In this document: one piece after another, positions 229 through 39,663 of the stretch
Layout of the letters: every line of letters starts with the position of its first letter
How positions within the stretch are numbered: position 1 is the first letter of the stretch
Origin: Lingula anatina
Taxonomy: Eukaryota > Animalia > Brachiopoda
DNA length: 64,000 nucleotides
NCBI GenBank assembly: GCA_051362555.1
Contig: CM120644.1
Coordinates: forward strand, 11,616,567 to 11,680,566
Direction of reading: 5' to 3'
Program-made: the position numbers and the translations under genes
The notes under the pieces: model-generated
What the model was told of the DNA's origin: nothing
The model's database searches: none
What the model saw: only the letters and a program-made list of their open reading frames with translations

Positions 229-9011
<8,783 letters not shown>

Positions 9012-9279
9012 CCTGGAATAAATAACATTTTGAAACTTAATCGTCGTGATCGTGTCGAGCAAGATGGATCCTTTCAGGGAACTCTGTCCCAAATTAGATA
9101 GGTTATAAAATCATTAATCTCTTAAAGTGACCAGTTTAGTAAGCTGAGAGATGTGAAAACTCTGAAAATGGGCCTCAAAGTTGGTCAGACTGCGGCTTTC
9201 TTTCGATAAATGTAACCATTCCATGGGCGCCATAACAGATCTAAAAAAAGGTTAATTTTATCGAACTCATGTATTGTAA

Positions 9280-13217: not shown

Positions 13218-16200
13218 GGGGGGGGAAGGGTCGGCTTCGCAGCCGCGGACCCCCCTTCAAATAATTCTGGATCCGCCCCTGTATTGTACAGTAGGGCCTA
13301 CTAGTCTATGAAGGAGCTAGGGCACTAGACTGTATTGCACCCAGGAGAATGCACACATGTTAGTGACGTTGCTGAGCAATATATACATGTACTACCCTTT
13401 TGGCAACACTGTTGTATGAAAAAGTATGTTAAAAACAAACAAATAACAAAGCTTTCTTTTTTGCTAGTCTATTTACAGATCACACTCACAAAATTCCACA
13501 TTTTACTGTCATTGTCCAGATAAACCCCACAGATTTTATATTTCAGATTTAAACAGATTACATGTACCTAAAACGGAGAGTGCTGATGGAAGAGCCAGAT
13601 GCGTGCACATTTCTAATATCATAAAACCGGTAAGATAGCCTATTAGGGATAGATGCGGCAATAGAAAGGATGCGGGATAGAAGCATGGCAATAGTCCCGA
13701 ACTGATAAGTACATTCTGAAAAGTTTTGTGCTTAATAGGCTAAAATAAATTGGCTTTGCCCGAGTCCTGTTTCACAATACGGCTGAAGTACAGGGTTGCT
13801 ACTTAATATGGAATATATTTTATCATTGTTATTTTTGAGTGCTGATTAAAATTTTTTTGGCTTGAGTCATTAAAAAAGTATGTCACTGAGTGATAATAAC
13901 ATCCAGTCTTCTGTTGTGAGATATCTTGGTCAATAATATCAAATCTGACATAAGATGCCATTCAAAAGAAAGGAACACCCCCAGAAAACCATATCAACAG
14001 TTTGATATCAGTATAAACTTTAAGATAAGATATTAAAGGAAATTATAGCCTCCGGACAGTGATATGTTACACCGTCAAAGAACTGACTACAGTAAATCAT
14101 GAAAAGTCAGTAATTGCGGGTATGACCTCCAGCAGCCGCTTGCAGCGCCCTCATCCTACATGGCATACCCTGTGACACGTTTTTTAGAGTTTGGGTGGGG
14201 ATATCATTCCACGCAGTGATATTTGCCTATCGCAGTTCATCACTATTTACCGGCCGAGGACCATAGCTATTAATTCTGTGAGTTACTTCCGCCCACAGAT
14301 TTTCAATTGGGTTCATATCTGGAGAGTTTGCAGGCCAGGGCAGTTGCTGAACCCATTGGTTTTGAAGAAAAACAGTGATTCTGCGGCCTCGATGTGGGGT
14401 TGCGCAGTCGTCTTGGTAAACAAAATTGTTCCTGAAGATGACTCTTACCAATCGAAGCATTGTTTGCTGTAGAATGTCTCTGTAGGAATCCTGGATGAAT
14501 TTGCCTCCTAGAAAAACCAACTGGTTCTGGGCACCGACATGAAATGCTCCCCAAACAGAGACGTTACCATCCCCTGCTTGCACCCTAGGCAGTACACAAT
14601 CATTGTTTTATGCCCCTCGTACACGTCGGTGGACACGGATTCGACGATCAACCCTAAAAAATCCATTTCTGGCCTCATCACTGAAAACGACGTGATTCCA
14701 GTGTTTTGGCTGCAAACGCACGTGGTCCCCAGCCCATTGCAGACGTCGCTGTATATGACCTGCTGTTAACAGTAGTTTCCCTACTGGCCTTCGTGCAAAA
14801 TCAGCCCGGGAGCCACTGGCTGATTTGACGGTTATTTTGGAAAATATTAGATTTGGCCTCGTTTTCAAAACGTGGAGTGGTAGCCCCAAAAAAATTTGGC
14901 GGGAGACGAAGGCATAGAGACAGGTAAGTTGTACATGTGTTTGTGGAATGAACAGTAGATTTAAATACTAATGAATTTGACGGGACAATACAGTATATGC
15001 TTAAGTTACATTTTATACACCGAATAAGTCTTCGTGTATCGATTTCACTGAGTATTCTCTAAAGTTACTGGCGATTAGCAAAATGGCCGCACACAAAACG
15101 TCATTGTAAACATTGACTTTTGAACTGTGCCAAATGCAGCTTAAGGGTTTTTTTCTTTATCTGTTCTTGTTTTTTCATAGTTTGGCAATATTTTTTGAAC
15201 ATATCAAATTTTTAAGATGTGCGATGGCCTGTAATTTGTAGAATTTCAACATTTCCAACAAGCTGTATATTCACCGTGCCGGGTACCTATCATTTAGTTG
15301 ATCGAGTGATGGCAGTGGCTTTCTGGTCTCATGCATGGAATGAATGTCACCGTATAAGTGAAATGTTTGAATCTTGGCTTCTCATGCAATTTCTTCGTGT
15401 TTTAATGTGAAAAGGATGAAGTGGATTGCGAAATAACATTGTCATCCAACCTGCATAGACGTACGTATACGTATGTGCATATCGTGGTGTACCAGTATAT
15501 ACTTGTTTGCAAAGCGATGGGGAGGGGGGGGGGGGCATTGGTACCAGTAGTTGTGAAATATATAGTATTGTAAACTAACCATAGGCATGTTTTGAAATAT
15601 ATGAATCGTAAATTATGTCTTTTTTGCTGGGGGCGGGGGGGGGGGGTTAAATGTATCAATTGTGTTAATTTTTTTAGAAAAAAAACATGTAAACACAAAA
15701 TAAGTTTTATTGCATTGGTTGGGGGTTTTGAGGAGAAGAATGTCATAAAAATGCAAGTTTAAAAAAGGTGAATAATATATGTATGTGTGTATGTACATTA
15801 AATGAAACAGGCTCTTCAATGATGAGGGCATATGATAGTGATGTGGTGCTCTGACTTGCATGTGTTTTCTAATTTTTTCATGCCTTGATTCAAATTGGGT
15901 TTTTGAATTATAATGGGTGTGCAACTTTGCCCAAAGTTCAGTTTCAAATGTTTTTTTAATAATCACTGTTATGAATTAAGTATAAATAGTGCAGTTTAAG
16001 GTAAAGATTGTAAATATAGTACGTGCTGTTTAAGATTGATTGTTACAGTTTACCTATTACAAAGATTGCAATAAATTATGATTAATTTCAGTGTGTATGT
16101 GTGTGAGCAATTGATAAATGTAGTTAGAATTTTTTTATGATATTCTTTTAAAAACTCTATTATTTATTCTAGGCTTGAATAGCATGAATGGGACCAGGAT

Positions 16201-19200
16201 AATTCCTTTTGCCGTGCAATTATCATAACAAAAGCGCCCATCATTTCCAAATGCTGTGTGACAATGAACACCACAACCTCTTGGATACTTCTAAGGGATG
16301 AAAAATATGTGCTCTTGCTAATATAAATAGTTATTGGTTATCAGTACATAGAAATGCAGTTTGTGAAATCAATTTAGGTTTTAACCACATGAAGTTAGTT
16401 AAAAGTGTATGTGCAACTAAGTTAACAATACATTGTTTTATTTTTACTGTGCAGGTTTTTTTTATATATGTGTAGCTTATAGATAATATCTACTTATCAG
16501 AATACAAGTAAAACAAGTTTATTCAAATGCAAATATGGATTGATACCTGGTATCACTGAAAGAAAATTAACATGACATCTTTGGGAAAATTTATGAAATT
16601 ATATTATTTGTAAAAATTCTGGTCCACTGTGTAAAGGGAAATTGTGTGTTAGATGGTTAAATACATATAAATGTGTACCAATCAAGTAAAGTAGCATTGA
16701 ATTATCACCTACTGGGTAATTAATGTACAATGTAATGTAAAATAACTATTTTGCAATGTACATGTCTCACTGGTAAAATATTTCAGGCTAGTTGAATTTT
16801 ATGTAAAATTAAAATAAAATATATAGCAATGTGATTAAATGTAAATTGTCTTTCATTTGTTATTTTTCATATTTAATGAAAGGAATACCCTCATCAGTTG
16901 GCCTCATGTAATAAAAAGGTTTATCTACAATGAAAAAAAATGTTAAAGTTCATTTGTATTAGCACCGTGGTAAGTGCCAAGAAAAAAATTATTTCATTGT
17001 CCCCAATACCCAGTTGCTCTATATAAGTAATACTGTGTGAAGGAAAAACTAAAACGAGACTAAAGCTCATGAGAAAGCACTAAGTCAAAGCGAGGCTTAT
17101 ATGCGGATATCGTAAGTGAGAGTTTTCAGGCTGACATGGCCGTGAATTGATTTGTGCCATTCACAGCTTAAGGCAAAGTTCTTTACATGCTTACATTGAC
17201 AGAAAGCTGAATAAATTTTCCACAACTTGTAGTAATTTCAAGTTGTGCGGAGGCCTCTATAGGTACAAAAATCAAAATCAAAAACGAACTTCCGTAATAG
17301 CTTTAATAAAATTTCGATTTCAAACTCATTTTTCAACATTAAATATGCTGTAGATCAACTTTTGGGTCATCTCACATTATTCGAAATTTATTTCTCAATA
17401 TGACAATGTACATATTGTAACCCCAAGTACGTTAATAGCCGAGATAATACACCGTTTATGACACCCTATAAATCTCAAAAAATATTGCCCAATTCAAATT
17501 CTCGAACTTCCGGTTTGTTTAATAGCCACCTAGCGGCAGACCAGTGGCTCCCGGGCTGAATAACCGGCTAGCAGAAATATCTTGTTCACGTGGGACCTTG
17601 AAACGGGAGTTTGAATGACATTCTGCCTCTCTTTTCTGAGGACACTGGTTGTCTTTGTACGACCAGCACGGCGTCCTTTAAGGAGAAAGCGATCCTGTCT
17701 TCTTGGTGTGATACGCGGACACCCTGGTCGAGGTATTGGAGTAGGTGCCCCTGTTGCAGCATTTCTTTGGAGGACTTCACAAACGTATTGTTATAGAGTA
17801 TATAGCTTAGACTTTCACTGATTACAAGTAATAATTAAAGAGAAATCAAATTAGTAAAAGGATAGTGAGTTGTTGACTATAAGGTAAATTTCTTTAAAAG
17901 TCAACAAGTGTAGGAAAAGATGGAACATGTTAAAGTCACATATAGTTCGCTTTGATTGGTTAATTTCGCAATAGATTTGCAAGTTTCTGCCACGTGTTAA
18001 ACACATGCAAACTAAGGATGGATATGGTGCACCATGAGTTAGATAAATAATATTTTAGGTATTATTAATTTTCATCCGCGGACCCCCCCCCCCTTCAAAT
18101 AATCCTGGATCCGCCCCTGTACTCTGTTCTCTGTAAATTGCACAGGCATAGGGCAAATAAACGGTTATGAAATAAATGGAATATATTACTCTAATAGCTC
18201 CCAATGCAGGGTTACATGAAGGAAAACGTAATTGTACACGTAACAACAGATTTCATCTTATTTAAAGTTTAAAATCATTGTGTGTTATCTTAAATGCTGG
18301 TGTAATTGTTAAATAATTAACTGGAGAGTCATATTGCTATATACATGTATCTAGTTTTTTTACCTGCTCGTGAAGGTTTTACAGTTTTTTTAAAATCCTT
18401 CATGATATCAATTTCTAATAAAATATAATGTAGGCATCTTATATTATTGAATATATTTCTATTTTTAGATGAACTTAAATGAGATAACAACTCTTTGTAT
18501 GAGATCTATATTTCACAATAAATACATGGTAACAACTCATAGAAATATAATACGGTATAGTTAACCACAAAAACGACAGTTATAGCAATTATTCTGAAAT
18601 CTTTGCTTGTCATCGGACCACGTGACCTCCATAGGTGGCCATATAAAATAAGAAAAAAAAACTTATTCGAAAACAAAACCGGGACTATTTATAGCGAGCA
18701 ATAAACCGAAAAATACGTTGAACTAACGGCTCCCCCATGTCACATACATGTAGAGCACCATTTACACAGGTGTTGCAATACTTATAACACCCCTCTGTAT
18801 ATGTGCCGGGTATAAGACACAATAGCAGTGATGTCAGTGAGTAAAAAGTTCATAGGTGAGTTCCGGTCCCACAAAAATGCTCCTATGGTTATTACCTGCT
18901 GCCATATTGCACTGAGAGTCGATTTGGAGAGTAAAAGCTCCTCAATTGTTATTTCCACACGATGCCAACCTTTGATTAAAAGGACCATAAGTGCAACCTG
19001 AGCTTCAGAGATAAATTGATACAAACCTCTGCACCAAAGAAGTATATCCTTGCCGTTTCCAGTTGCCTCTGACCAGGGCTCCGTAACTCGAAAGCATCGC
19101 GTAATGCGGATAGCGATATCACATAGAGGCTACAAAGTATTATATTGGGCGAGTATAGGCGAGTTATGGAATCGAGACGCTTGCGCTCGGTCGCAATGCT

Positions 19201-21289
19201 TTCGAGTTACGGGGCCCAGGTTCGTAGGGCCTGGCTGCCGGCCCCTCAAGCTTTACACCCGCCCCAATGACTCATTGAAGGATATCTTTGAGAGCATTCA
19301 CATCGAGAAGAGCCGAGGTCTAGCAAGGCATGACATTCATTGAGATTCATTGAGAGACCATTAAAGGATTACGTGGTCATCCTTTCATGTAGGTCCGCCA
19401 TATTTATTATTTAGGTCTCGGCCTTGCTAGACCTAGGCTCTTCTCGATGTGAATGCTCTCTTTACGTATCAACACACGCTCTAACGCAATAAACGCGAAC
19501 GAGTCCAAGCGCGGTTTTTAATTTAAGACTAGTTTGTCGGGGTCATTATTGCCGCATCTCAAGCTAGTAGCTTTCGAACAAAATTGCTAAAACACGAGGC
19601 TAAAAATAAGTTTTTTATCAGATCATAGTGAAAAACAAGTAGCCGACAATACACAGCAAATATTCAATTTTGCAACCTCATCTTACAACAACAGGCGCAA
19701 TCGATCTCAAAATATCGGGCATTTTAAATTCCTTCATGAACAAACATATCAAATTCTCACCTAGCTTCCAAAATGAAACAATAAAATATAGTTGCACTTG
19801 ATTTCTATAAGTTCAATCGTTGTGTCTAAATGACATAAAAAGTGAGCGATAACCGCTATCGTGCTTTCTCTGAACGAGAGGGCGCCCGGTCCGAATGCAA
19901 TCGGCTCTGTGCTAGACAAGTCCTGTCATGACCCATTACTTTTGCTTTATTTGTCAAAGATGTGCATATTTCACAATAAATACATTGTAAATAATCCATA
20001 GAAATACAATAAATTCTACTTTACACCCAAAACGGCGGTTAACACAATTATTTTGGAATTTGTGCTTGCCATCACATCACGTGACCTCCATAGATGTCTA
20101 CACTCTGTAATAATCTCTTAAGAGATTATTACAAAAAAACAAACTTTTTAGAAAAAACAGGTACTAATTTTGAATGTGGGAATGGATTCATTTACAATTG
20201 GTAGGTATGGAAAAATTGTCCTTTACCCCTGAAAAATTCTTTTGGCCAAAATGAACAGTTGTTATCCCTTTAAGTATGTATTAAGATTTTGGTTTGTCCG
20301 TTTACTTCCATTTCCTCATAAAGTATGATAAATGTGATAATATATTACAGGCTGCATGAGGCACGCCTGAATTGGCTACAAAACCAACATGTTGATAACA
20401 AAATATCATTTAAAAAATGATACGACAGTATATAATAGTAAGACTTTCTTCTAGAATTTCTCTTCTCTTTTAGAAATATCATTGGGATAAAGTTCCTGGA
20501 GAATGGCAGGAAACTATGAAACGGAGAAGGCAAATGTTGTTTCAGATGTGCAAAGATCAGAATGAAACCATACCACCAGAGGCACCAACTAAAGTGAAAC
20601 AGCCCATTCCAAACAGAATCTTTGTCGAAGACATACATGAAATAATCCTGTGTCCCATGGCAAAAGCAGCAAGTAAAACCTGGTTGAAGATATATTTCAA
20701 ACTAAACAAGCAGATGAACACTTCTGCCTTACATAATGACTGGATTCCAAAGCATGCGATACGTGTGCATAAACTTAACAAGTACACCGACTTTGGTATC
20801 ACCACACGCCTTAACACCTATCTTAAAATAATGACAGTCCGTCATCCTCTGATCCGTCTCGTGTCGGTGTATCACGAACAAGTGGCGCCTCCTGGATCTC
20901 AGTATGAGGGGGATGTGAAGCGCTTTATCGCGAAGACAGAAGGGAGAAAAATCCAGTCTGTTTCATTTGAAGACTTCCTGCGTTACGCCATCCAAACTCC
21001 AAATATGCACTGGGATCCATTCAAAAAATTTTGTGATCCGTGTTATATAGATTATGATCTGTTGGTATATTTCGAAACTATGGAAGACGACGCCAAAAAC
21101 ACGCTGATTCTTTTGGGTGCAGACGACATGATCAAACTTCCTCCTTCACACCGTGCAGATAAAATGTCGGCTGACGATGAAGCTCGAAAACATTATGATG
21201 GTGTAGACAGAGAGCTACTGAAACGAGTTATCGCGATGTACAGGATTGAAGAGAAGTACTTTGGATACAACATGAGTTTATTTTCATGA
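12175..21289 (+). CDS. Carbohydrate sulfotransferase (CHST8-14 / Sulfotransfer_2 family, CHST11-like), paralog 1; type II membrane protein
   Basis: Exons 12175-12277 (MRRLTRHISTCRLVRCIGVALVLVYLWNRNSKFL, signal anchor), 13547-13629, 20474-21289; phases 1 and 0 join in frame. 5'-PSB-like CPMAKAASKTW, 3'-PB VRHPLIRLVSVY, HW...CDPCYIDYD...FET...DA and terminal FGY motifs. Confidence 0.85.
12972..13280. mobile_element. hAT-like non-autonomous element (CAGGGGCGGATCCAG-type ends); related ends at ~10768-10800, 12441-12573 and 18080-18119
   Basis: cagtggcggatt ... ggatccgcccctg inverted termini with internal poly-C/G and (GT)n; no clear TSD seen. Confidence 0.55.
14107..17830 (-). mobile_element. 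Degenerate Tc1/mariner transposase, split in two by a nested insertion
   Basis: N-terminal part ~17560-17800 reads ATGAPTPIPRPGCPRITPRRQDRFLL...VSRSHVNKIFLLAGY; C-terminal part 14107-14801 reads FARRP...HWNHVVFSDEAR...VWGAF...YQDDCATPH...WPANSPDMNPIENLW...AAGGHTRNY*; frameshifts present. TIRs not identified. Confidence 0.9.
14802..17558. mobile_element. 2.76-kb non-autonomous DNA transposon, Academ-like, nested in the Tc1
   Basis: Perfect 18-bp TIRs CAGCCCGGGAGCCACTGG (14802-14819, reverse complement 17541-17558) and 3-bp TSD AAT; excision restores the Tc1 frame AGYFARRP. Superfamily call is inferred from YAG termini and 3-bp TSD. Confidence 0.8.
18476..18720 (-). mobile_element. Kolobok-like MITE family B, diverged partial copy
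   Basis: Reverse similarity to 27492-27828 (tatgagatctatatttcacaata ... gaccacgtgacctcca). Confidence 0.65.
19077..19216. mobile_element. Harbinger-like MITE (140 bp)
   Basis: TIRs GGCTCCGTAACTCGAAAGCAT / ATGCTTTCGAGTTACGGGGCC; TSD CAG. Confidence 0.8.
19290..19460. mobile_element. MITE with ~40-bp TIRs (171 bp)
   Basis: GAGAGCATTCACATCGAGAAGAGCC.AGGTCTAGCAAGGC and its reverse complement; TSD TTT. Confidence 0.85.
19960..20272 (-). mobile_element. Kolobok-like MITE family B, diverged copy
   Basis: Reverse similarity to 27492-27828; ends ...ttatccct followed by TTAA. Confidence 0.7.
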
Positions 21290-21549: not shown

Positions 21550-21765
21550 GACCCCCATTCCCACAGATTTTAGATCGATCTATCCCTGTGGGGAGTCTCA
21601 CTAGTTTACTGTCAGCTTAGCCGGCTTAAGCGTCTGTCCCGGCTACTAAAAGCTGTAAGGGGGTAATTAACTGTCGTGCGCGCTCGGCTGACTGAAATTT
21701 AGCTTGAACCCCTAGGAAGTTAGGTCGATCCGGATGGATCGATCTAAATCTCTGGGAATGCACTC
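21550..21765 (+). mobile_element. MITE family A, full copy
   Basis: Same TIRs and internal sequence as 9795-10019; TTA TSD. Confidence 0.85.
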
Positions 21766-22157
21766 TTAGTCATTTACTTTAACCATCTGGGGGATGGATC
21801 CTGATAAATAGGCCAATTTTCCGACTAGAAATTTGACAAAGGTGCAGTTTAAAACATCTTTTTTGGCAGAACGAGGGATAAATTTGGTTTATGACTTGGT
21901 ATGTCGACTTTTTTGTCATATAAGAAACTAGGAAAGGTGGATTATATGTGTTACTGGAAATCCACACTCGCGTAAGGCCCTAAAACGAGTCCAGTGCACA
22001 AACAAGCGACACCATTAGAATTAATTTACAAGTAGGGGGATTTTTTTTTTTTTTTTTTTTTGTGTGAACTGAGCAGTATATAATCTTGCAACAAGCCAAA
22101 GCCATTTGCGTGAACTATTTCCGTAACAAGATTTTTTCTTCTTCAATATTATATTAA

Positions 22158-22494
22158 AGGAATAATAACTCTTCGTTTTGGGCAAAAAATGAATTTTCCT
22201 AGAGTAAACAACGATTTTCCCATACTTACCAATGGTTAATGAATCCATTTTTACATTCAAAGCTAGAACCTGTTTTTTTCTAAAACGTTTTTTTTTTTTG
22301 TTATAATCTCTTAAGAGATTATAACAGAGTATAGCCATCAATGGAGGTCACGTGGTCTAAAGACAAGCCCAGATATCAGAATAATAGCTATAACTGCCGT
22401 TTTTGTGGTACAACAGAATATATTATATTTCTTTGAGTTGTTCACAATGTTTTTATTATGAAACATAGATCTCATACGAAGAGATATTATCCCT
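22158..22494 (+). mobile_element. Kolobok-like MITE family B (337 bp)
   Basis: TTAA on both sides; TIR AGG(A/G)ATAATAACTCTTCGT; nearly identical to 27492-27828. Confidence 0.85.
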
Positions 22495-22805
22495 TTAACA
22501 TTGACGTCGATATATTTGATATAAACCCGCATTGCATTAAAAGACATAGAATTATTAATGTCCCGGTGTAACATAAAAGAGAGTCCCCCACTGCATGATA
22601 GAGACCGCTTCCCATTCATTTGTACAGGTAAGCCTCGCCCCAGATTTTGACCCACTTAGGTCGGGCTAACCCTAGCCATTATTACTAAAGGGACGGCGGA
22701 CTTTCTGTTACACGCACCCTCAGTTTTGTTACACCTGCGTACCAAAAAAGCGTTCAACATTGTTGTATAAACTTATTTCCCTGTTGCAGTTTACATAAAG
22801 CGGCC

Positions 22806-23211: not shown

Positions 23212-25497
23212 TTGGGGGAGGGGGGCTAGTATACTTACAGACCACACTCCTAAAATTCCACATTTCACTGTCATTGTCCAGATAAACCTGACAGATTTTT
23301 TTTTTCAGATTTAAACGGACTATATGTACCTAAAACGAAGAACGCTGATAGAAGAGCCAAAGACATGGACATTTCTGGTATCTTGAAACAGGTAAGACGC
23401 CATGCAGGATGGAAGAATGGCAATAGTCCCTTTAAAACTAATTAATACGTTCTGTAAATTTGTGTACCTCATTGGGTAAAACCGGAGTGCCTTTGTCTGA
23501 GTCCTGTTTCACAAAACGCCTGAAGTCGGTTTTTTGGGCTAACATCGCAGCTTTAATAGAAAAAGCCGACTAAGACCCCATTCCCATACCTAGATCGATC
23601 TAGCGGGATCGGTCCATCTCCGAGGGGATTCTCGCTAAATTCCTCCCCCTTTCCTCCAGTGACAAACCATGGCGTTGGCGCATGGCTAGAGAATGCCTCA
23701 GTCAAAGGTCTTGCAGTGTTATTCTCACGATGTCTATTCACATAGGTGATTGTAAGCATGCTATCTGTTAGTTTTCGCCTGAGTATAACCCCGAGGAAGT
23801 GCTGTGCCCGAGGAATTTTCCTCGGTTTTACTTATTTCACCACCCAAAGTACAGTAATCTTAATTATCACTTTTAACGACCGCAAAATTGATTTTATTGC
23901 AACACAGTTAAAGTAGAAATGTCATCCAATACGAAAAATAACTTTGTCCATGAACTTCTATAATGTAATGAAAGAGGGCATGGTTCAAACTTTTGCATCT
24001 TAAATGACGCTTTTTTTGTAGTATAATGTAGCATTTTAATATTATCTCGGACGAATAAAACAAAAGGGGTTGGGACGTGGCATCTACCTTTGATTATAAT
24101 CAGTGCCTGCTGCGGCTGTGTCAAGAGAAGTTTCTCTATATCTTTGCATTAATTATATACTTTCTCATGGTCTTGTGGTCGCTATGATATAGCATTGCCG
24201 CCATCTTGAATGCTGCTTGCGGTTAGACGTGGAAATTTATTCGATCTTTTCTGTATTTTTTCCACTTAATCTCAAAAATAAAGGTTTTTCATACCCTTTA
24301 ACTTTTATCTGTTCGTTATTATTACAGCACCGCCATAAAACACCAAACAATATGTAGATATGGACATATCTGATTACATACATGCTAAAATTGCACATGA
24401 CAAAAGTTTACAACCTCGCGGGAATTTTTCACCATGGCGTTCTTTGTCGTCCACGTTTTATTCGTCTAAGATGTTACTGAATATATGCTAGATTAAATAC
24501 GTGTTTCGATTTTGGTTTATCTATTTAATTCCATTTTTTTTCATAAAGTATGATAAACGCGGTAATGTAATACTGGCACGCCTGAATTGGCTTCTAAAAC
24601 GACGGGTTGATAATAATGTTTTTAAACAGTGGTAGTATACAATAGTGTATTTATCTTTAAAATTCTCTTCTTTTTTAGAAATATCATTGGGATAAAGTTC
24701 CTGGAGAATGGTTGGAAACTATGAAACGGAGAAGACAAATGTTATTTCAGATGTGCAAGGATCAGAATGAAACCATTAGACCGGGAGCACCAGTTGAAGT
24801 GAAGAAACATCCTATTCCAGACAGAACCTTTGTCGAAGACATCTATCAAATAGTTCTGTGTCCCATGGCAAAAGCAGCAAGTAAAACCTGGTTGAAGATA
24901 TATTTCAAACTAAACAAGCAGATGAACACATCTGCGTTACATAATGACTGGATATCAGGCCATCTTATTCACGTGCATAATCTTAACAAGTACACTGAAT
25001 TTGGTATCAACACACGCCTTAATACCTATCTTAAAATAATGACAGTCCGTCACCCTCTGATCCGTCTTGTGTCGGTGTATCACGAACAAGTGGCACCTCA
25101 CGGATCTCAATTTGAGAGGTACGTGAAGCGCTTTATCGAGAAGACAGAAGGGAGAAAAATCCAGTCTGTTACATTTGAAGACTTCCTGCGTTACGCCATC
25201 CAAACTCCAAATATGCATTGGGATCCGTTCATTAAATTTTGTGATCCGTGCCATATAGATTATGATCTGTTGATATATTTCGAAACTCTGGCAGACGACG
25301 CCAAAAACACGCTGATTCTTTTGGGTGCAGACGACATGATCAAACTCCCGCCATCACATCGTGCAGATAAAATGTCGGCTGACGACGAAGCTCGAAAACA
25401 TTATGATGGTGTAGACAGAGAGCTACTGAAACGAGTTATCGCAATGTACGGGATTGAAGAAAAGTACTTTGGATACAACTTGAGTTTATTTTCATGA
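22806..25497 (+). CDS. Carbohydrate sulfotransferase (CHST11-like), paralog 2
   Basis: Exons 22806-22893 (MQHLTRRFICILITCMVLVLMYLWDRKFL), 23309-23391, 24679-25497; same phases and motifs as paralog 1; open frame intact. Confidence 0.85.
23574..23640 (+). mobile_element. MITE family A-related terminal fragment (another at ~26005-26056)
   Basis: gaccccattcccatacctagatcgatc terminus preceded by TAA. Confidence 0.6.
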
Positions 25498-26938
25498 AGT
25501 AAACATACATGCACGCTTTATTAGTGTTCAACTTTGATTCAAAGGTGATCGAAATATTGTAAAGTACGTGGTTCGAAAGATTTGGGAGGGACGTATCCAG
25601 ATAAATAGCACAATTTGCCGACAAGACATTTGACGAAGGTCCCATTTTAAAGCTATTTTGGGGTGAAACGAGGGATTCATTTGGTTTTTGACTTGGCATG
25701 TCGAATTTATTTTGTCGTATGTGAAACTAGGAAAAGTGATTCATATGCGTTAATGGAAATCACGCTCGCTTTATATGTTACTTTAAAAGTTAATACGGTT
25801 TTCAGCTGACATCTAACACAGTGTTTTTTGAAAATATTCAATAGAAAGAGCCAATGTTCATTAAAGTCATGAAATGTCTCTTTTGGGAAAAATCCATGAG
25901 CAACGTTCAGTTTGAAATTTGCGCACATACAGTAAGCTCATCAAGACCTTTTCAAAGAACGCACTGACACCACCGCCATGTTATCTTTTCCACCTTCATA
26001 ATTTTGACTGGGTTCCCATACCTAAATCGATCTAACAGGATCGATCCATCTCCGAGGTGCTTAAACACTGCTTTATCTGGGATTATATGCGCTTTTGTTT
26101 GATTTATCGTAGTTTCTATTTCCAGTATTTCAGCTATAAATAAGGTTGCTGGTATTGATAACTTGTACTACGTTTCCTAGCGGACTTCCATTCTTGTTAC
26201 ACCGAAACTTTTGCGCCGCTTTTCCGTCGTTGTGACTGATTTGTAGCCACGTACTTTTTATTTCTGGTAGCCACTTCTGGCTGTCGGTTTTATTTACCAT
26301 CTGAAAAACGTAAGATACCGAAGAGGTCTAAAATGGATATTCGTGTATTTCTATGATTTTGTTGGCCTTAATCTCAAGATTCATCATTATGAAATATCAA
26401 TATTCTGTACATCATTCTTTGAGTAAATAATGATTTGTAAAAATGTCTTACTGTCTTAATGGATCAATTTTTAAAGAAAAAAAAATGTCAACTTCAAGTC
26501 ACCGTAGCAAGCTGACTGTTAGTGTCAACCATTAAAACTGTTGTTGACACGTAGGTTATCTATACCTGAAGACATAGATACTGATCAACAGATCCTAACT
26601 GTACTCTATAATTAACTAGACTTGGTGCGTTCCTCCAGCCTTGTGATCAGAGGTGTCATCCGGCTAGCCGTGGATGACACTTGAGTAAAAGAATAAAAAT
26701 ACCTCCCTTGATTGCAATCAAGCCACTGGATGATTAATCTACCTGTACAAAATAATCAATCGCCTGGACTCCTCCCTTCGAGCCCTATAATTATCTGTGC
26801 GTCATCAGGAATTAATCTACCGGTACGATCTCGCTCCTGTTTCTCTTTTTTTGTACTAATTATACCGTATGGCAATCAGCTGTGACCTGTACCTCAGTAA
26901 ACAATAGAGTGCACGCGCGGGTCCAGGCTTCAGGTGTG

Positions 26939-26980
26939 TATAAAAAGCCACGGGTTGGCGGTAAGTTTCACACATTCAGC
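26939..26980 (+). promoter_or_regulatory. TATA box and candidate initiator of the HTH gene
   Basis: TATAAAAAG at 26939-26947; CATTCA at 26973-26978, about 30 nt downstream and just before ATG 26985. Confidence 0.65.
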
Positions 26981-26984
26981 AGTC

Positions 26985-28114
26985 ATGCCTCTGAACAACA
27001 CCAAAGCACGCTCTACACTTGCAGTTGCCGGGAAATCCGCAGCCACTTCCTCCAAGGGTGGCCAAGGGAAAGGAACAAGTGGAGGAACATCCAAGAAGCA
27101 GTCACAGACCGCCTCTGGGAAAAGCGCCGCCGCTGCCAAGAAGCAAAATACAAAGGGGAAGAAAACCAAAGGGATGCTGCCACCAGGGAAAAAATTCGAA
27201 TCCCAGCATTATGATATCATTCGAAAAACGATGAAGAGAAACCCCTGGACCAGCGCCGCAAAGCTGCAAAGCATTCTGTACAAGAAAACAGGTGAGACGA
27301 AATTTTCCTGTAGTATTTGTTACTGACCACGACTACTCCCTATTATAACTTGACGTTACATTCTTACATTAATTTAGTCCAATGGCTGCAAGTTGCTGGT
27401 AGATAATGAATAAAATAAATGTTAAATCCTCATTAGCACTACGCATGCATTTTTCATTTAGTCTTTACTCAGTCTTGATATTAATCATTAAAGGGATAAT
27501 AACTCTTCGTTTTGGCCAAAAAATGAATTTTCCTGGAGTAAACAACAATTTTCCCATACTTACCAATGGTTAATGAATCCATTTTTACATTCAAAGTTGG
27601 CCCTCGGTTTTTTTCTAAAAAGTTTGTTTTTTTGTTAAAATCTCTTAAGAGATTTTAACAGAGTATAGCCATCAATGGAGGTCACGTGGTCTAAAGACAA
27701 GTTCAGATATCAGAATAATAGCTATAACTGCCGTTTTTGTAGTAAAACAGAATATATTATATTTCTATGAGTTATTCACAATGTTGTTATTGTGAAATAT
27801 AGATCTCATACGAAGAGTTATTATCCCTTTAAGTTCAAATTAGCTATTACGCTTATATCATAGTCGTTATTATCTAAAAATTTAATAGCAATGTACATTC
27901 ATTTATTTCAGGCCTTGACGTCAGTGAGTCCAGCATTAGCAAGGTGAGACATAAGCTCGGTTGCCCCCCTGCCAAACCTAGGTTCGTTTACGTGCCCGCT
28001 TTGGACGAGAGGAATAATCCGAACAGTCCTCTTTACAAGCCCCCAGTAAATGCACCAGCCCCCTACCGCCCAGATTTCCTTAGCAGCAGAATTTCTGGTG
28101 GTGCAAGGTTTTAA
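26985..28114 (+). CDS. 169-aa basic protein: K/G/S/A-rich histone-tail-like N-terminus plus Tc1/IS630 transposase-type helix-turn-helix, no DDE domain
   Basis: Exons 26985-27291 (ACAG|gtgaga) and 27912-28114 (tttcag|GC), phase 1, join in frame: ...QHYDIIRKTMKRNPWTSAAKLQSILYKKTG|LDVSESSISKVRHKLGCPPAKPRFVYVPALDERNN...GARF*. Pattern matches the second Tc1 HTH (K.NP..TA..LQ..L...G..VS.STI.R.LH..G...R.P...P.L..RN). Supported by TATA box and 3' signals. Confidence 0.8.
27492..27828 (+). mobile_element. Kolobok-like MITE family B (337 bp) in the intron of the HTH gene
   Basis: 19-bp perfect TIR AGGGATAATAACTCTTCGT; TTAA TSD at 27488-27491 and 27829-27832. Confidence 0.9.
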
Positions 28115-28145
28115 TGCAGCATATGTAGGAAGTTATCATATTCCT

Positions 28146-28186
28146 CCAAACAGCCCTTTTCAGGGCTACCCATTGATCAAGAAAAG
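28146..28186 (+). terminator. Histone mRNA-type 3' stem-loop plus histone downstream element (U7-type 3' processing signal)
   Basis: CCAAAC-AGCCCT-TTTC-AGGGCT-ACCCA (stem 28152-28167) followed by CAAGAAAAG (28178-28186), 37 nt after the stop codon; AATAAA also at 28212 and 28238. Confidence 0.85.
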
Positions 28187-29326
28187 CTAAACCACTTGTT
28201 TATTTATATTTAATAAAATATTTATTTATTATTTGGCAATAAAATGTTATGGATAAAGTTTGAATACACACAATATAAATTATTTAACAGTTGATAATAG
28301 TTCGAGGAAACAAACTAAAATTAGAAGTAAATTTATTAATTATACTCTCAGGTTCACTGGTTCTTTCGTCTACCTGTTGGGTTAACGCTGCTGCAAAACA
28401 GACGCTTCTTTTTCATATAATTATTCAGATGAATAGATTTCATCATACTATAATTTTTTAATTCGCATAAGATGATAAAACTGTGAGAAAAAAACTAAAT
28501 TTATCCAGAGCTAAGTCTACAATGGCAATGACCACCATCCTATTGGGATAACTGCTGCTCATTTGGCCATACACCGATTTTCCTGGGGTGAACGTCAATT
28601 TCTCGTTCTCACCAATGGCAAATTAATCCGTTCCAAAATTCAAAGTTAGTCCATGTTTTGTTTTTCTATGACCTCTTTAAATATTATTTCCAAGGGTAAC
28701 CATCTATGAATGTCACATTGAGCGATGACAAGAACCCATTCCCGATTTATATTTTTCTTTGGTATTTGCTGGAACCTTTAGGCCTCAAACTTTATGCAAA
28801 ATCTACTGTAAACATGTCTCCCGTAATTGAGTACAAAGAAACTACAGAATACGAAATTGTTTTCTTTATATATTTTTCAATTAGAAGATGTACCTTGGGC
28901 TGCTGCCCAATACATATATATCAATACACTGCAAGTAATTTTTAATAACTGACATTACAAAAAATAAAGCTCACAAATATGCATTTTTTTCTATCCAAAA
29001 GTAAACAATGATATATTTATTATATGAATCCTGTACTTTTGATTTAACTACAATTCATAAACAAAATCAAAGAACTAAATACCAAGAAATACACTAAATA
29101 TTCAGTTTATAAAAGATATAATTCATCAATAACATTCATTTCAATGCATTAAAAATGATCCATATATATTGCATACATAGTATGTCAATAAAAATTATGC
29201 AAAAATATTTATTATTGCATATAATAAACTGTTAGTACATCAGTTTCAAGGTTACAGTCAACTGTAGTTGTCATGGTAACACAGACGTACCAGTACTTCC
29301 ACACAAGTGTCAGGACAGATTCCAAC

Positions 29327-29564
29327 GAGACCATTCTCACAGATATTTGGATCGATCTATCTCCCTGGGGAGTCTCACCAAATTGTTGTCAACTGAAATG
29401 TCTGTCACGTTTGGTAAAGCTGTTAAGGGGTAATTATCTTTACCCCTATCTGATTCAGTAGTTGTGACAGACATTTAAGCCTCTTGAGCTGATAGCAATT
29501 TAGCGAGAACCCCCAGGGAGTTAGGTCAATCCAGATGGATCGATCTAAGTATGGGAACCCAGTC
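29327..29564 (+). mobile_element. MITE family A, diverged subfamily
   Basis: gagaccattctcacagatatttggatcgatc ... gatcgatctaagtatgggaacccagtc; similar to reverse complement of 39438-39663. Confidence 0.75.
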
Positions 29565-30293
29565 AATGGGTCGTTCTCATTGATCTCACAGATATGAAAT
29601 ATACCCTATGAAACAGCAAAAAATAATAATGCTCTCTGTGTAAGGTGTGTTCAGTTCCTTCCCTTATTTTGTAGCTGCTCAAAGAGTAACTTCATGTAGA
29701 AATCTTTTTTTTCTCTGACTGGTCAGTTGCAATATAAACTGGAGGCGAGGGGAACTTACAGTGGCTCGTCTTTATTGTTCCTTCATGCCTTGGTAGTCAA
29801 CAGGAATAACAAATCTAACAATGTACAATACCTCAAGAGCTCTGCTTCACCTCTGGTCATGGTCTGAATGTGGTGTATTCTTCAAAATACACTTGGGACT
29901 GGGTTTACATTACAAGCATTGAAACCACAAAATGAATAAGTAAATAAATAAATGGGAAATTACGTTACACTAATAAACTTTTCATTTCCACAAAAAATAA
30001 AGCTGTGCCTTACAGAGCTTTTGGCCACTCTATGACTTTCCTCAGTGTGTATTACTATGAGACTGATTTATTAAACGTGTGAGGAACCACTTTATTTTAG
30101 TGTAGAAAATGTGCAGTCCTTTCGCATGATCAACAGACTAAATGGATGAATTTGGATCAGAAAAATGGAAATTATCTTTTAAAATCTTTAAAATTCTGTG
30201 CAATGTACAAAATTGCCAAGTTAATGTTTGCATACAGATATAAATCATACATTTATATACAGTCATGAATAACCAGTGATGAGAATAAGTCAT

Positions 30294-31745
30294 TCACAAT
30301 GCCTGTGCTTCTTCATATGTAGGTGGGGCAGGCAGATGCTCCTGTCCATCAGATGTAGGGGGCAGAGCTTCAGGGGGTGGCCCTTCAAATATGGGTGGAG
30401 CTTCTGTAGGCTGTCCCTCACCTGTAGGTGGTACATACTGGGGAGGGTATTCATCAGCCTGTGGCTGTGAATTGATTTGTTCAGTTTGTGAGGTATCTTG
30501 AGAATGAGCTGCATATTGAGATGGTTGCCCTGGAGACAGTTCCCCTGGTGACGGTTGCGCTGGATTATACTGATGTGCAGGATAAACCGAAGAACAAGAC
30601 TGAGCATTTTGCTGGACCCCATTTTGTAAATCTTGTTGAGTAATGTCCCAGTAACTTGGGGGTGCCCCTGCATTCGAGTCTTGGTTAGAAGAAGTTGCAG
30701 TTCCACTGAGATTAGCACTATCTGACTGGTATGTGAGGGTGGTCCCATGAGGTGTGTTGAAATACACTGTTGTCCCAGGCTGTGCTCTAAAAAAGTAATG
30801 AGAAATGAATTATTATTTTCAGATTCCTTGTGGTATAATTTCATCTATCTCAGTCTTATTTATAAACACAAATATACAGCTAAACAGGAAAAAGTATTTT
30901 ATTATAAAAAGAATGAAGTGATGAAAAGAGAGAGAGAATGAGAGGAGAGAGAAAATTTCATGGGAGTCAAACTGAGTCAAGTACAAGAGGAATTCATCAA
31001 ACTGGACTGTTTGCTAACAGCAACTACATTTACACTGTAAACAATTAAGTCAGAATTTGTACTTCCTAGTATAAAACTAACAAACTGATTTTAATCATCA
31101 TTATCTTTATTAATGATGTTTTTGCTGTTGTATTTCTTAATATCACAGGGATGAATGATTAGTTAAGAATTATGAACATGGTGTGTGTGTGTGTGTGCGT
31201 ACATGCACGTGTGTGTGTGTGGGCATATGTTTAAGTAAAACCAGCCTGTGTTCTTACCCAGCAGTAAACTGTGGCTGTCCCTCAGGGTCGTATGCTGCCG
31301 TAACAGTCTGTAGCACAGCGCCCTGTGTCCTACGCTGCCAAACCTTACACAGAATAATCCCAGAGAGCAGAAACAGCCCCATCAGAACACCTGTGGCTAT
31401 ACTTCCACCAGATATCCCTGATGTGACCAGCACTCCAGTGGGGACGGCAAATAGAACACCACATATAATTAAAAAACAGGCACATATGCGTTGTCTCTGG
31501 TCTGGCACTGATGTCTGAGATTGTATGGCAAAGCTCGCTGTGGTTCCTGCTGAAGGAATCGCTGGACCACTAGGTTGGTTACGGCCAGAAAATAAATTGC
31601 CAAGGTGCAATGTCACGTTACCATGGTGCCTGTGGATACGGTGGTGATGTCTGCGGTGGTTTGTGTGATGGGCACGATGATGTGCTCGTGCACGATGGCG
31701 ACGGCGATGAGCTCTTCCTCTGCGTCCCCGTTCTCCACTTCCCAT
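30294..31745 (-). CDS. Uncharacterised ~326-aa membrane protein: His/Arg-rich N-terminus, two TM helices, Pro/Gln-rich tail with PPxY motifs
   Basis: Exons 31745-31258 (GG|gtaag) and 30786-30294 (ttag|A), phase 2 join in frame; hydrophobic segments ICACFLIICGVLFAVPTGVLVT and SIATGVLMGLFLLSGIILC; PPSY, PPQY, PPTY. Upstream acceptor at ~31770 and candidate non-coding exon donor at ~32552. Confidence 0.8.
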
Positions 31746-33258
31746 CAGTATTACTATGTTGTTCAAACCCTAGTCAATGAGACAAGTAATAAAAACATAC
31801 TGTTGTTTAGGTAAGTGTAATTTTTTTTTTTTTTTTGGGGGGGGGGGGATACACTGTTCAATTTAAGTGAAAACAATGCACAACCTACAGCACTACTTAT
31901 GCTCATTGTCATCTATGAAAGAGAGAGCTCTTTGTTCATCAAGAATAACCTGATATTGTCAAAATAAAATTTAAAACATTTGGCCATGTTTTTAAATGGA
32001 CCAGTCAGCATAAGACAAATAATAATGTCAAAATGTAATGAAAGTTTCCAGTTAACAAATTACTCAGTGGCATATATGACACAGACTTCATTCAACTAAG
32101 GAAAAAATTCAGTTACAGGGGGGGGGGGGGGGGGGGGGGGGCATTCTAAGAAAATTTACGTGCAGGTAGTTAAACTCAACATAAGGAAATACAGTTTTAC
32201 TGTGAGAATAGCAAACCTTTCATATGAAATAGCCTACCACACCAAGTGGTGAATGCTGAATCAATAAATCATTTCAAAACTAGATTAGATAAGCACGTGT
32301 GCAAGAGGACTTTAAAAATTATAGAGCAGAGTTTAAGACTCAGAGTGCCGGAAGTAATAAAAATCTTATATCACAACTTTTACAGTCTGACGAAGAGTGC
32401 ACGGTCAGAAAAATCACCATAAGTAACCGTAAGTACGGTAAGTGTGTCATCTTTGACTTTGAAGATTCACTTGAAAAAAGTATTATATATAGTTGAAATC
32501 TGGCCAATATATTAAATAGAAAACAATAAAAAAACTGCCTGCAAGTTCTTACCTCTGTAGTTAAGTGTGGCAGGTATTAATTCAATACTTGAACTGACTA
32601 TGTGCGATCAATTTTGGGGAATCAGAGGTAGGTGTGACGACCCCTTGAGATGTATTATTTACAAATATTTTGCAATCGGCCGATATGGGTCTCCTTTGCG
32701 AAAGAGCAAAAGAGCACTGTTGTAGATGGCGCTACTGCAATACGATACTGTGAAATAACAGAAACTCATTCGTGGCGTATAGTATGCGTCTGAGCAAATG
32801 GATCCATAAATATCCTAACGCAAGGTGTTTGCTAAATCATATGTCATTTTAACGATAAGAAGAGAGTGATGAGTTTTTGTAAATATGAGAGAAACTTTTG
32901 TTTTGTTTTTAATTATTTGCTAATAAACGTAATATTGTGTAATGTTTTCACATTTCCCCTTTTTTGAATTAATTTCTCTCCCCCCCCTCTTATATAAGTA
33001 TATCTCGTTATCAGTTTCCTTTTCAGAAAGATTCATCACCCTTTATCAATTGACTTGATTGTCTGACTAGCTAAGCGAGACTTAACCGGCCCCGGTTCAT
33101 CCATTTATATCATCATTTTCACAAGTCGGCAGACTTTTTCCACACCCTCCCTTTAGATTGTACAAGGTCAATGGTGAAAGGCTAAAAATAACGCACTTAA
33201 ACAGAAATTTGGATCATTTTTATCATTTTTCAAAAGCGTTTAGATGGCATTAACCCCC

Positions 33259-33299
<41 letters not shown>

Positions 33300-34235
33300 A
33301 GCGTAGGGTTAGTAAAAAATGATAAAAACCGACGATCCCTTAATTAGGCCTTACAGCAAAACTAATGACATATGATTGAACGGATTTTTTTATAAGGGGG
33401 GGGGGGGGGGGTCAAAAGTCTTTAAAATGAATAAAATCCCCAAAACAACAGACCTACGCGTGCCCCACGTTGATCAGTGACCATAAAGATTTTCCTTCTT
33501 TCTTCTTCTTTTTTTGCTTGCTTATATTAATTAATTAATTTATTTATTTATAAAAATAACGAAATGTTGCATTTTGCAATTTGGAAACATACCATGATTT
33601 GTATATAACCAAATGTGAAGACCATTTTAAAGTCGTTCACCAGCTTTCCCAGGACTACTCGTTTCACATAACACAAAAATAGACCATTTTCAATCGTTTA
33701 CTATAACAGGTGCCCCGCTGGAGGGTTGAAAACCTCCATGTCACCAGTTTCCATTAATTACAACAATTTACATAGGCTAACGGCGTTTAGAAGCATTTGT
33801 ACAAAATACCAATACTCTCAGTGAATCGTCTGAACACTCTGAAACCACATGTGAGAAGATATATAGGTCTATGCATTCCCACGAGCAAAAACACGTGTCT
33901 TTTTAAAGACACTGCATTTTAAAATAGAAGTAGACGTATAAATTATTCCGTGGAAGTATGTCTAGCACGAGCTTTAGTTAACACTTAAAGAATTTGAACC
34001 ATGATCGATGGCGTATGTTCGGACTTGTCGGTTTTTGTTGAAAAGAATGGCCCTTCATTACAATCAGTTTCTCTTTCAGCCCTCACTCCTAGAACAAAGT
34101 CCATAAAATACTTGTTTCATGTAAGTCACTTAATTTGGTGACGTCACTGAACAATGGACACTTTAGTGTGGAAGCAAGGAGTTATAACTCCTTGGTGGAA
34201 GGCTGCCAAAAAGTTAGGGCATTTAATACATCTAA

Positions 34236-34464
34236 GGCTGTATTCCCAGAGACTTAGATCGATCCAGAGATTTAGATTTAGATCGACCTAACTCCCTGGG
34301 TGTTCACGCTAAATTGCAGTCAGCCGAGCGCGCACCATAGATAATTACCCCCTTACAGCTTTCAGTAGGCGGGACAGACGCTTAAGCCTGCTAAGCTGAC
34401 AGCAATCTAGTGAGACTCCCCACAGGGATAGATCGATCGATCTAAAATCTATGGAAATGGGGTC
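34236..34464 (-). mobile_element. MITE family A, full copy
   Basis: Close reverse complement of 9795-10019; TAA/TTA flanks. Confidence 0.85.
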
Positions 34465-39437: not shown

Positions 39438-39663
39438 GACTGGGTTCCCACAGATTTAGATCGATCCATCTGGATCGACCTAACTCCCTGGGGGTTCACG
39501 CTAAACTGCTGTCGGCTTCTGGGAGCCGAGCGCGCACAAAAGTTAATTACCCCCTTACAGCTTTTAGTAGGCGGGACAGACATTTAAGCCGGTTAAACTG
39601 ACAACAATCTAGTGAGACTCTCTAGGGGAATAGATCGATCTAAATATCTGTGGGAATGGTCTC
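39438..39663 (-). mobile_element. MITE family A, full copy
   Basis: TTA TSD, family TIRs and internal sequence. Confidence 0.85.

Follow-up and report, generated by a model that had tools for sequence, protein, structure and literature searches.

The 64,000-nucleotide (nt) stretch of the Lingula anatina genome analyzed here (contig CM120644.1, positions 11,616,567 to 11,680,566; henceforth the window) contains, on its forward strand, a two-exon gene whose product of 169 amino acids (aa), delineated by sequence and open reading frame (ORF) analysis, ends with a TAA stop at 28114. This gene, which is expressed, under constraint, interrupted by an intron and coding for a non-histone protein with a helix-turn-helix (HTH) domain, carries a real and well-formed histone-type 3' signal. 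Its features are given below in window coordinates, as read from the sequence and with further evidence in brackets. The RNA reads come from eight of the nine same-species runs listed (X8 was left out), of which 6-30% each was mapped and whose libraries are mostly poly(A)-selected; HTH profile and structure searches were scored on the RefSeq homolog P0003.

26939..26945, + strand: TATA box, TATAAAA
26973..26977, + strand: CATTC, probable start-site motif (X3 reads begin in the bin 26971-27027)
26985..27291, + strand: coding exon 1, 307 nt, with the ATG, the basic tail and HTH helices 1 and 2 (sense reads in X1, X2 and X3)
27189..27982, + strand: span of residues 69-126, the IS630/Tc1-like HTH, intron included (profile matches and predicted helices on P0003)
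27292..27911, + strand: GT-AG intron of 620 nt in phase 1, interrupting the HTH (join as in two RefSeq proteins)
27488..27832, no strand assigned: multicopy insertion of 345 nt in the intron, resembling a miniature inverted-repeat transposable element (MITE) (23-nt perfect terminal inverted repeat)
27912..28114, + strand: coding exon 2, with HTH helix 3, a basic linker, a Pro-rich tail and the TAA stop (sense reads in X2 and X3)
28147..28172, + strand: histone-type 3' stem-loop with flanks, core 28152-28167, predicted cleavage after 28172 (Rfam RF00032, 32.9 bits)
28178..28186, + strand: purine-rich motif CAAGAAAAG, resembling a histone downstream element (HDE) and starting 10 nt after the stem, with eight purines at 28179-28186
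28212..28243, + strand: two AATAAA hexamers (at 28212 and 28238) in a stretch of 19% GC, possible fallback poly(A) signals

The gene model is well supported. The initial annotation of this DNA had proposed a two-exon ORF of 169 aa behind a TATA box, all features of which we confirmed in the sequence, and the exon join it placed at 27291/27912 recurs identically in two RefSeq proteins of Lingula anatina. From the position of the CATTC motif, which we take to resemble the histone cap-site motif, the 5' untranslated region (UTR) would be roughly 12-16 nt long, and none of the eight runs shows any RNA depth upstream of 26956. Without the MITE-like insertion the intron measures 275 nt. As a separate observation, two short motifs that are alike (26737-26751 and 26810-26825) and three CAATC boxes lie upstream of the TATA box and might be promoter elements.

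The 3' signal is a hairpin with a 6-bp stem and a 4-nt loop, whose core starts 37 nt after the stop and is bordered by a CAAAC 5' flank and an ACCCA 3' flank; computational folding returns the same 6 bp and 4 nt, at -9.0 kcal/mol. It matches the full length of the Rfam Histone3 model (RF00032) with 32.9 bits and an E-value of 9.3e-8 in 501 nt. Because this score lies just under the gathering score of 34, a scan of the whole window at the gathering score yielded 0 matches. The hairpin has a G-C pair at stem position 2, a U at loop position 3 and a location near the stop, as histone hairpins do, and agrees at 13 of 16 positions with the human H2AFX hairpin as given in the available portion of the source (PMC2413145). 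Its first stem pair is A-U, with compensatory changes of both bases; the initial annotation had singled out this pair, and while the retention of pairing stands, the variant is not unique, as it recurs behind non-histone ORFs elsewhere (see below). An A-U first pair in mussel H1 genes was looked for in the literature without confirmation.

That the sequence drifted by chance into the appearance of such a signal is so improbable as to be negligible, its score below the Rfam gathering score being the one feature in favor of such a view. In 120 million simulated strand-bases with the composition of the window, the core pattern arose 190 times, the core with both flanks once and the same with the downstream purine element 0 times, so that the hairpin is not a chance match, and the initial annotation is upheld in taking it for a histone-type stem-loop. 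Within 60 nt behind any one stop, core and flanks together are expected about 5e-7 times, the downstream element left uncounted; for the 7-mer of that element, the chance within a slot of 6 nt is about 7e-4. No second hairpin with both flanks occurs in the 64-kb window; a hairpin-like core at 33896 was set aside, as it has neither the 3' flank nor the purine element.

The encoded protein is highly basic (isoelectric point (pI) 10.6, charge about +26), with an uneven distribution of charge: residues 1-70 form a tail rich in K, A, G, S and T with 16 K+R and no D or E, against 5 K+R and 3 D+E in the 41 residues of the weakly basic C-terminal part. Two AlphaFold2 runs on P0003 predict three helices at 73-118 with a predicted local distance difference test score (pLDDT) of 82-91 by blocks, and disorder elsewhere; both models, which were built from shallow alignments, lack a beta-wing after helix 3, and their pLDDT falls below 60 after residue 120. 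Residues 69-126 align to positions 55-116 of the NCBIfam profile NF033545 (IS630 transposase) with an E-value of 2.6e-4 and 20.6 bits, below the cut-off, and the Pfam family PF01498 (HTH_Tnp_Tc3_2) matches at E 0.021, likewise below its cut-off. In a structure search of the Atlas with residues 62-135, most of the ten matches listed belong to transposase-HTH or DDE_3 clusters, with TM-scores of 0.67-0.73, and comparison with solved structures by VIA-align aligns 49 residues to the second HTH of Tc3 (1u78) with Z 6.0 and a root-mean-square deviation of 2.9. Foldseek against the PDB gave no match at E<=0.001, with Pax paired domains among the weak matches at E 0.4-0.6, and a four-sequence profile against the PDB retrieved nothing clear. 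A DDE catalytic domain is absent: DDE_3 does not match, and in each of the three copies of the gene the reading frame closes about 40 residues past the HTH. Taken together with its pattern of substitutions, these matches suggest that the HTH is probably a constrained, transposase-derived DNA-binding domain.

A hairpin of this type would need no special origin if the gene instead encoded a linker histone, or a sperm protein derived from H1, so diverged that its globular domain now looks like a transposase HTH; the hairpin would then simply have been inherited. The size of the product (169-174 aa), its pI and its combination of a basic disordered tail with a three-helix domain would suit such an origin. 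Yet the Linker_histone family, which covers the H1 globular domain, does not match in Pfam at E<=10, and no histone family is found in Pfam at E<=10 or among the PDB sequence matches at E<=10. Neither predicted model has the wing, the long basic tail sits on the N-terminal side with a weakly basic C-terminal part, and the family matches point to IS630/Tc1. H1/H5 are not among the 50 VIA-align matches listed, an absence that is compatible with such an origin. We consider a linker-histone ancestry very unlikely, and the non-histone nature of the product, as originally claimed, is upheld.

Homologs are few. A search with exon 1 recovered a single cluster among 132 candidates, namely the Lingula anatina protein XP_013390612.1, which is 92% identical, together with a second member, XP_013417889.1; both RefSeq proteins have 174 aa and the exon join predicted here. 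The window copy differs from each of them in 23 columns as against 6 between the two, because of which it may be a paralog or belong to a distinct lineage. Further searches found no close relatives beyond these two proteins (1 cluster among 2 candidates; 0 among 23 longer proteins), and there were 0 homologous loci in viral contigs (9 candidate stretches) or metagenome contigs (258), 0 matches in PHROGs and only two in plasmids, both at E=9. An exhaustive search of 1.84 billion representatives returned 6 matches, self included. Two multi-HTH repeat proteins were also matched: KXN74106.1 of Conidiobolus (E 9e-9), a repeat of which is 27% identical over 82 residues, and a JGI protein named transposase (E 4.5e-5). 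Three further matches (P0006, P0007 and P0008) were dropped as repeat-driven, being to a long repetitive protein, an unrelated repeat and polyubiquitin. As an aside, KXN74106.1 (P0005) and P0009 consist of transposase-type HTHs repeated in tandem and lack a catalytic domain, and possibly represent a separate domestication in Conidiobolus.

Across the three Lingula copies changes are rarer in the HTH region than elsewhere: 2 of its 70 positions have changed as opposed to 21 of 104 elsewhere (Fisher p 0.001, with boundaries chosen post hoc), and 0 of 70 as opposed to 6 of 65 N-terminal positions between the RefSeq copies. When the HTH is set against the N-terminus alone, the difference has p 0.09, and the C-terminal coding sequence has drifted from the homologs in 14 of 39 columns.

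Transcription of both exons in the sense direction is borne out by low-level reads. Exonic reads are present in three of the eight runs (X1-X3, all from one poly(A) study), in amounts of about 4, 7 and 5 read-lengths per about 12 million records; the other five runs have no exonic depth. For nearly all of the exonic reads the first mate lies on the minus strand, which in most stranded libraries denotes sense RNA. X2 has depth over exon 2 and the terminal part of exon 1, the exon bins on either side being covered, and none at 27313-27426 within the intron, and its bin sums fit reads that halt at the splice sites; no junction read is found among the joints listed. Five read variants are listed in the exons, three of them silent on their own and two conservative and as in the RefSeq proteins (V128I, K29R). 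X1, X4, X5 and X7 were mapped at 95% likeness, at which diverged alleles can be missed. So the gene, or a close copy of it, is transcribed, at what appears to be a very low level. No run of the eight has read depth at 28111-28167 or across the hairpin, and the rarity of reads and the empty 3' end are what a tail-less mRNA would give. X2 and X3 show a little depth at 28168-28281, on opposite strands and within an AT-rich, repeat-like stretch; this signal is not trusted.

These data also bear on a more conventional view, in which the gene and its HTH are functional and the mRNA undergoes splicing and polyadenylation. The hairpin would have arrived with the 3' end of the gene and be a relic, or else no more than an SLBP site in a tailed message that serves in storage or translation control. 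The intron, the presence of reads in the poly(A)-selected X1-X3, the imperfect downstream element and the two AATAAA hexamers speak for it, and human histone mRNAs with both a hairpin and a poly(A) tail exist according to the accessible part of one study (PMC5100578). Against this, the hexamers are at chance level. In shuffles of their 19% GC stretch at least one arises in 47% and at least two in 12%, because of which the pair carries no weight; the intron holds two as well, and the dual 3' ends that had been proposed on the strength of these hexamers draw no support from them. Moreover, hairpin, flanks and purine element are intact although the adjacent C-terminal coding sequence has drifted, no 3'-biased pile of reads occurs at 28111-28250 in these runs, and in C. 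elegans mRNAs end at the hairpin although AATAAA follows (PMC1924863, as far as the available text goes). On balance, a tailed message with a vestigial or regulatory hairpin seems to us somewhat unlikely.

The histone-type hairpin of the Lingula gene reappears in other settings. Its exact 26 nt are found in three metagenome contigs (L001, L002 and L003), where about 1e-4 occurrences would be expected assuming 3e11 bases, and in 3/3 cases they lie behind non-histone ORFs, with RF00032 scores of 26-34 bits. L001 and L002 form a near-identical pair (hairpins at 53-78 and 92-117, respectively, both on the minus strand), in which a TATA box precedes an intronless ORF of 123-126 aa with an Arg-rich C-terminus and the hairpin follows 47 nt after the stop. 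This ORF (160-531 on the minus strand of L002) is downstream of a cysteine protease ORF (825-1382, minus strand) of the CE clan, which is matched by the Pfam adenovirus endoprotease at E 0.034 and by African swine fever virus S273R at E 0.0033; the L002 protease has no relative in viral contigs. From this arrangement we infer L001 and L002 to be a Polinton-like element. In L003 an acidic orphan ORF of 161 aa (487-972, plus strand), matched by neither Pfam nor PHROG, has the hairpin (1034-1059) 66 nt behind its stop. These loci have only the 26 nt in common with the Lingula gene. The pair L001 and L002 suggests that the histone 3' pathway may be exploited by virus-like elements. Two hairpin matches in viral contigs (0 in another scan) lie inside long phage ORFs and were judged to be chance.

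The wider neighborhood of the gene in the window comprises the following genes and remnants.

About 1000-9100, - strand: multi-exon DEAD-box helicase gene (DEAD E 2e-11), presumably DDX42-like by its motifs
14227-14967, - strand: broken Tc1-like transposase remnant 12 kb upstream of the gene (DDE_3 E 3e-8; HTH_Tnp_Tc3_2 E 7e-4)
20474-21289 and 24679-25497, + strand: tandem pair of Sulfotransfer_2 ORFs (about 89% DNA likeness over aligned stretches)
30290-31769, - strand: two stretches of ORF from what is probably a membrane protein, with one part rich in His and Arg and a tail rich in Pro (unmatched in Pfam)

Two families of short repeats are interspersed among them. The intronic MITE has further copies at 22153-22498, 19966-20273 and 18470-18643, its ends begin and finish in TTAA, and it has a central 28-nt palindrome; it attracts hundreds to thousands of RNA reads, which continue into unrelated flanks. 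A second MITE-like family with subterminal palindromes occupies 29327-29566, 21555-21747, 23581-23651, 26004-26062, 34252-34460 and 39438-39663. An 18-nt extremity is common to the ends at 26004 and 29566 and absent from the other copies inspected. This inverted pair was considered as the possible ends of an element around the gene and rejected, since it is part of a MITE family with many copies and lacks a target duplication.

Given this context, the gene could itself be carried as cargo by, or left over from, a mobile or virus-like element with histone-type ends on its own genes, and be young, low in copy number and weakly constrained rather than a host gene. The transposase-type HTH, the confinement of its relatives to Lingula and the identical hairpin behind non-histone ORFs in all three metagenome matches, two of them downstream of a protease ORF of a type typical of Polintons, would fit such a history. 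Set against it are the lack of any DDE remnant near the gene (a tblastn search of 24-30 kb with the Tc1 remnant of the window found only a weak HTH-side match inside a sulfotransferase ORF), the single copy of the gene in the window and only two in RefSeq, and the failure of the inverted repeat pair as element ends. Its exons and 3' UTR are nearly readless as compared to the intronic MITE, it has a spliceosomal intron and HTH-biased conservation, and it shares nothing with the metagenome loci beyond the 26 nt. Accordingly, we view a mobile-element identity as clearly improbable.

The best reading of the locus, to which we assign a probability of roughly 45%, is that of a domesticated HTH protein whose mRNA uses SLBP and U7 small nuclear ribonucleoprotein (snRNP). 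Under this proposal SLBP would bind the hairpin and the U7 snRNP would pair with the downstream element, whereupon the transcript would be cut after 28172 to give a tail-less mRNA timed like that of a histone. These steps are established histone biology, and their use by this gene is what we infer here. In evolutionary terms, the second HTH of an IS630/Tc1 transposase would have been retained without the DDE domain and a basic, histone-tail-like N-terminus gained, and the donor of the 3' end may have been a histone gene or a mobile element already bearing one. We predict that the protein binds DNA, its HTH sitting in the major groove and its basic tail neutralizing the backbone; it would be supplied during DNA replication, or in germ cells or embryos, and might act as an H1-like packaging protein or as a binder of transposon ends. 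The flanks and the purine element in the expected order, the short 3' UTR and the TATA promoter favor this reading.

Several observations weigh against the use of SLBP and U7 by a domesticated HTH gene. One is the presence of an intron in a stem-loop gene, and introns reportedly interfere with histone 3' processing, a result said to go back to work by Pandey in 1990. Stem-loop histone genes are described as intronless in Hydractinia in the sections available of one paper (PMC5011920), and the clustered histone genes of the annelids examined have no introns in the corresponding portion of another (PMC12153100). In the accessible text of a study of human SLBP by crosslinking and immunoprecipitation, there was no expressed non-histone target (PMC4604434), and only histone mRNAs are said to end in this hairpin in the passages available from three sources (PMC4604434, PMC5054213, PMC1924863). 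The hairpin itself agrees with only 11 of the 16 Rfam consensus positions and scores below the cut-off. The downstream element, which had been put forward as HDE-like, is indeed purine-rich and at the correct distance, but matches the partner of the conserved U7 UCUUU box (as quoted in part of PMC5054213) at only 4 of 5 positions. As regards transcription, the libraries behind the exonic reads were poly(A)-selected, so that at least some of the RNA seems to be tailed. The read gap at the 3' end decides nothing, because the reads number only 4-8 per run and stem from a diverged allele or a paralog whose 3' UTR may not align. Finally, the placement of the HTH with the second HTH of IS630/Tc1 transposases, as first proposed, has the support of the profile and Atlas matches, and the catalytic domain is missing as stated there, but the assignment is only moderate: the profile scores are below curated cut-offs, and among solved structures the matches are tied across many HTH families, with the sigma54 factor RpoN best at Z 6.6.

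A bolder version of the proposal would take the gene as a single instance of a larger class, so far undescribed, among invertebrates: transposons and Polinton-like elements that bear histone-type 3' ends would pass them to new host genes. Here, a spliced non-histone mRNA would be processed by SLBP and the U7 snRNP, and a transposase HTH with a histone-like basic tail would have joined the histone regulon to serve as a chromatin protein timed to replication. We advance this tentatively, as a scenario that is quite possible but on which we would not wager. Animals are thought to reserve the hairpin and its downstream signal for histone messages, and a spliced non-histone substrate would, if true, break these rules. 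It would make the coexistence of splicing and U7 cleavage on one pre-mRNA directly testable, and would offer a route by which a transposon fragment acquires cell-cycle timing in a single step. Among the papers listed from an open-access library, none describes the gene or reports a U7 substrate other than histone transcripts, and the main text of a 2026 survey makes no mention of non-histone genes, introns, Lingula or transposons. That Polinton-like contigs have the identical hairpin behind ORFs suggests that a wider class might have been missed by histone-only surveys.

In terms of known systems, the gene is not a replication-dependent histone gene, because its product is non-histone and it has an intron, and it is not a transposon, because it has neither a DDE domain nor ends. 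With the DNA-binding region of IS630/Tc1/mariner transposases it shares a three-helix HTH followed by a basic linker, and these are its best family matches by both sequence and predicted structure; it departs from them in its single HTH, low copy number and long basic N-tail, in the lack of a DDE domain, terminal repeats and target duplication, and in scores far below curated cut-offs. The Pax paired domain and CENP-B are domesticated transposase DNA-binding domains, and like these and the Conidiobolus protein KXN74106.1 the Lingula protein has a transposase-type HTH without catalysis; unlike the domesticated domains, it has a single HTH and is so far restricted to Lingula, and we know of no such domain with a histone-type mRNA end. 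H1 and protamine-like sperm proteins resemble it in being small and very basic, with a disordered tail, a three-helix domain and a histone-type 3' end, whereas it has no sequence match to them and no predicted wing, bears its tail at the N-terminus and contains an intron. Replication-dependent histone genes, in turn, differ from it in their product, in the intron and in the A-U first pair, and processing at its hairpin is only predicted; yet it has in common with them a TATA promoter, short UTRs, a 6-bp/4-nt hairpin with G2-C15 and loop U1 and U3 located about 30-40 nt after the stop, the ACCCA flank and a purine element 10 nt downstream.

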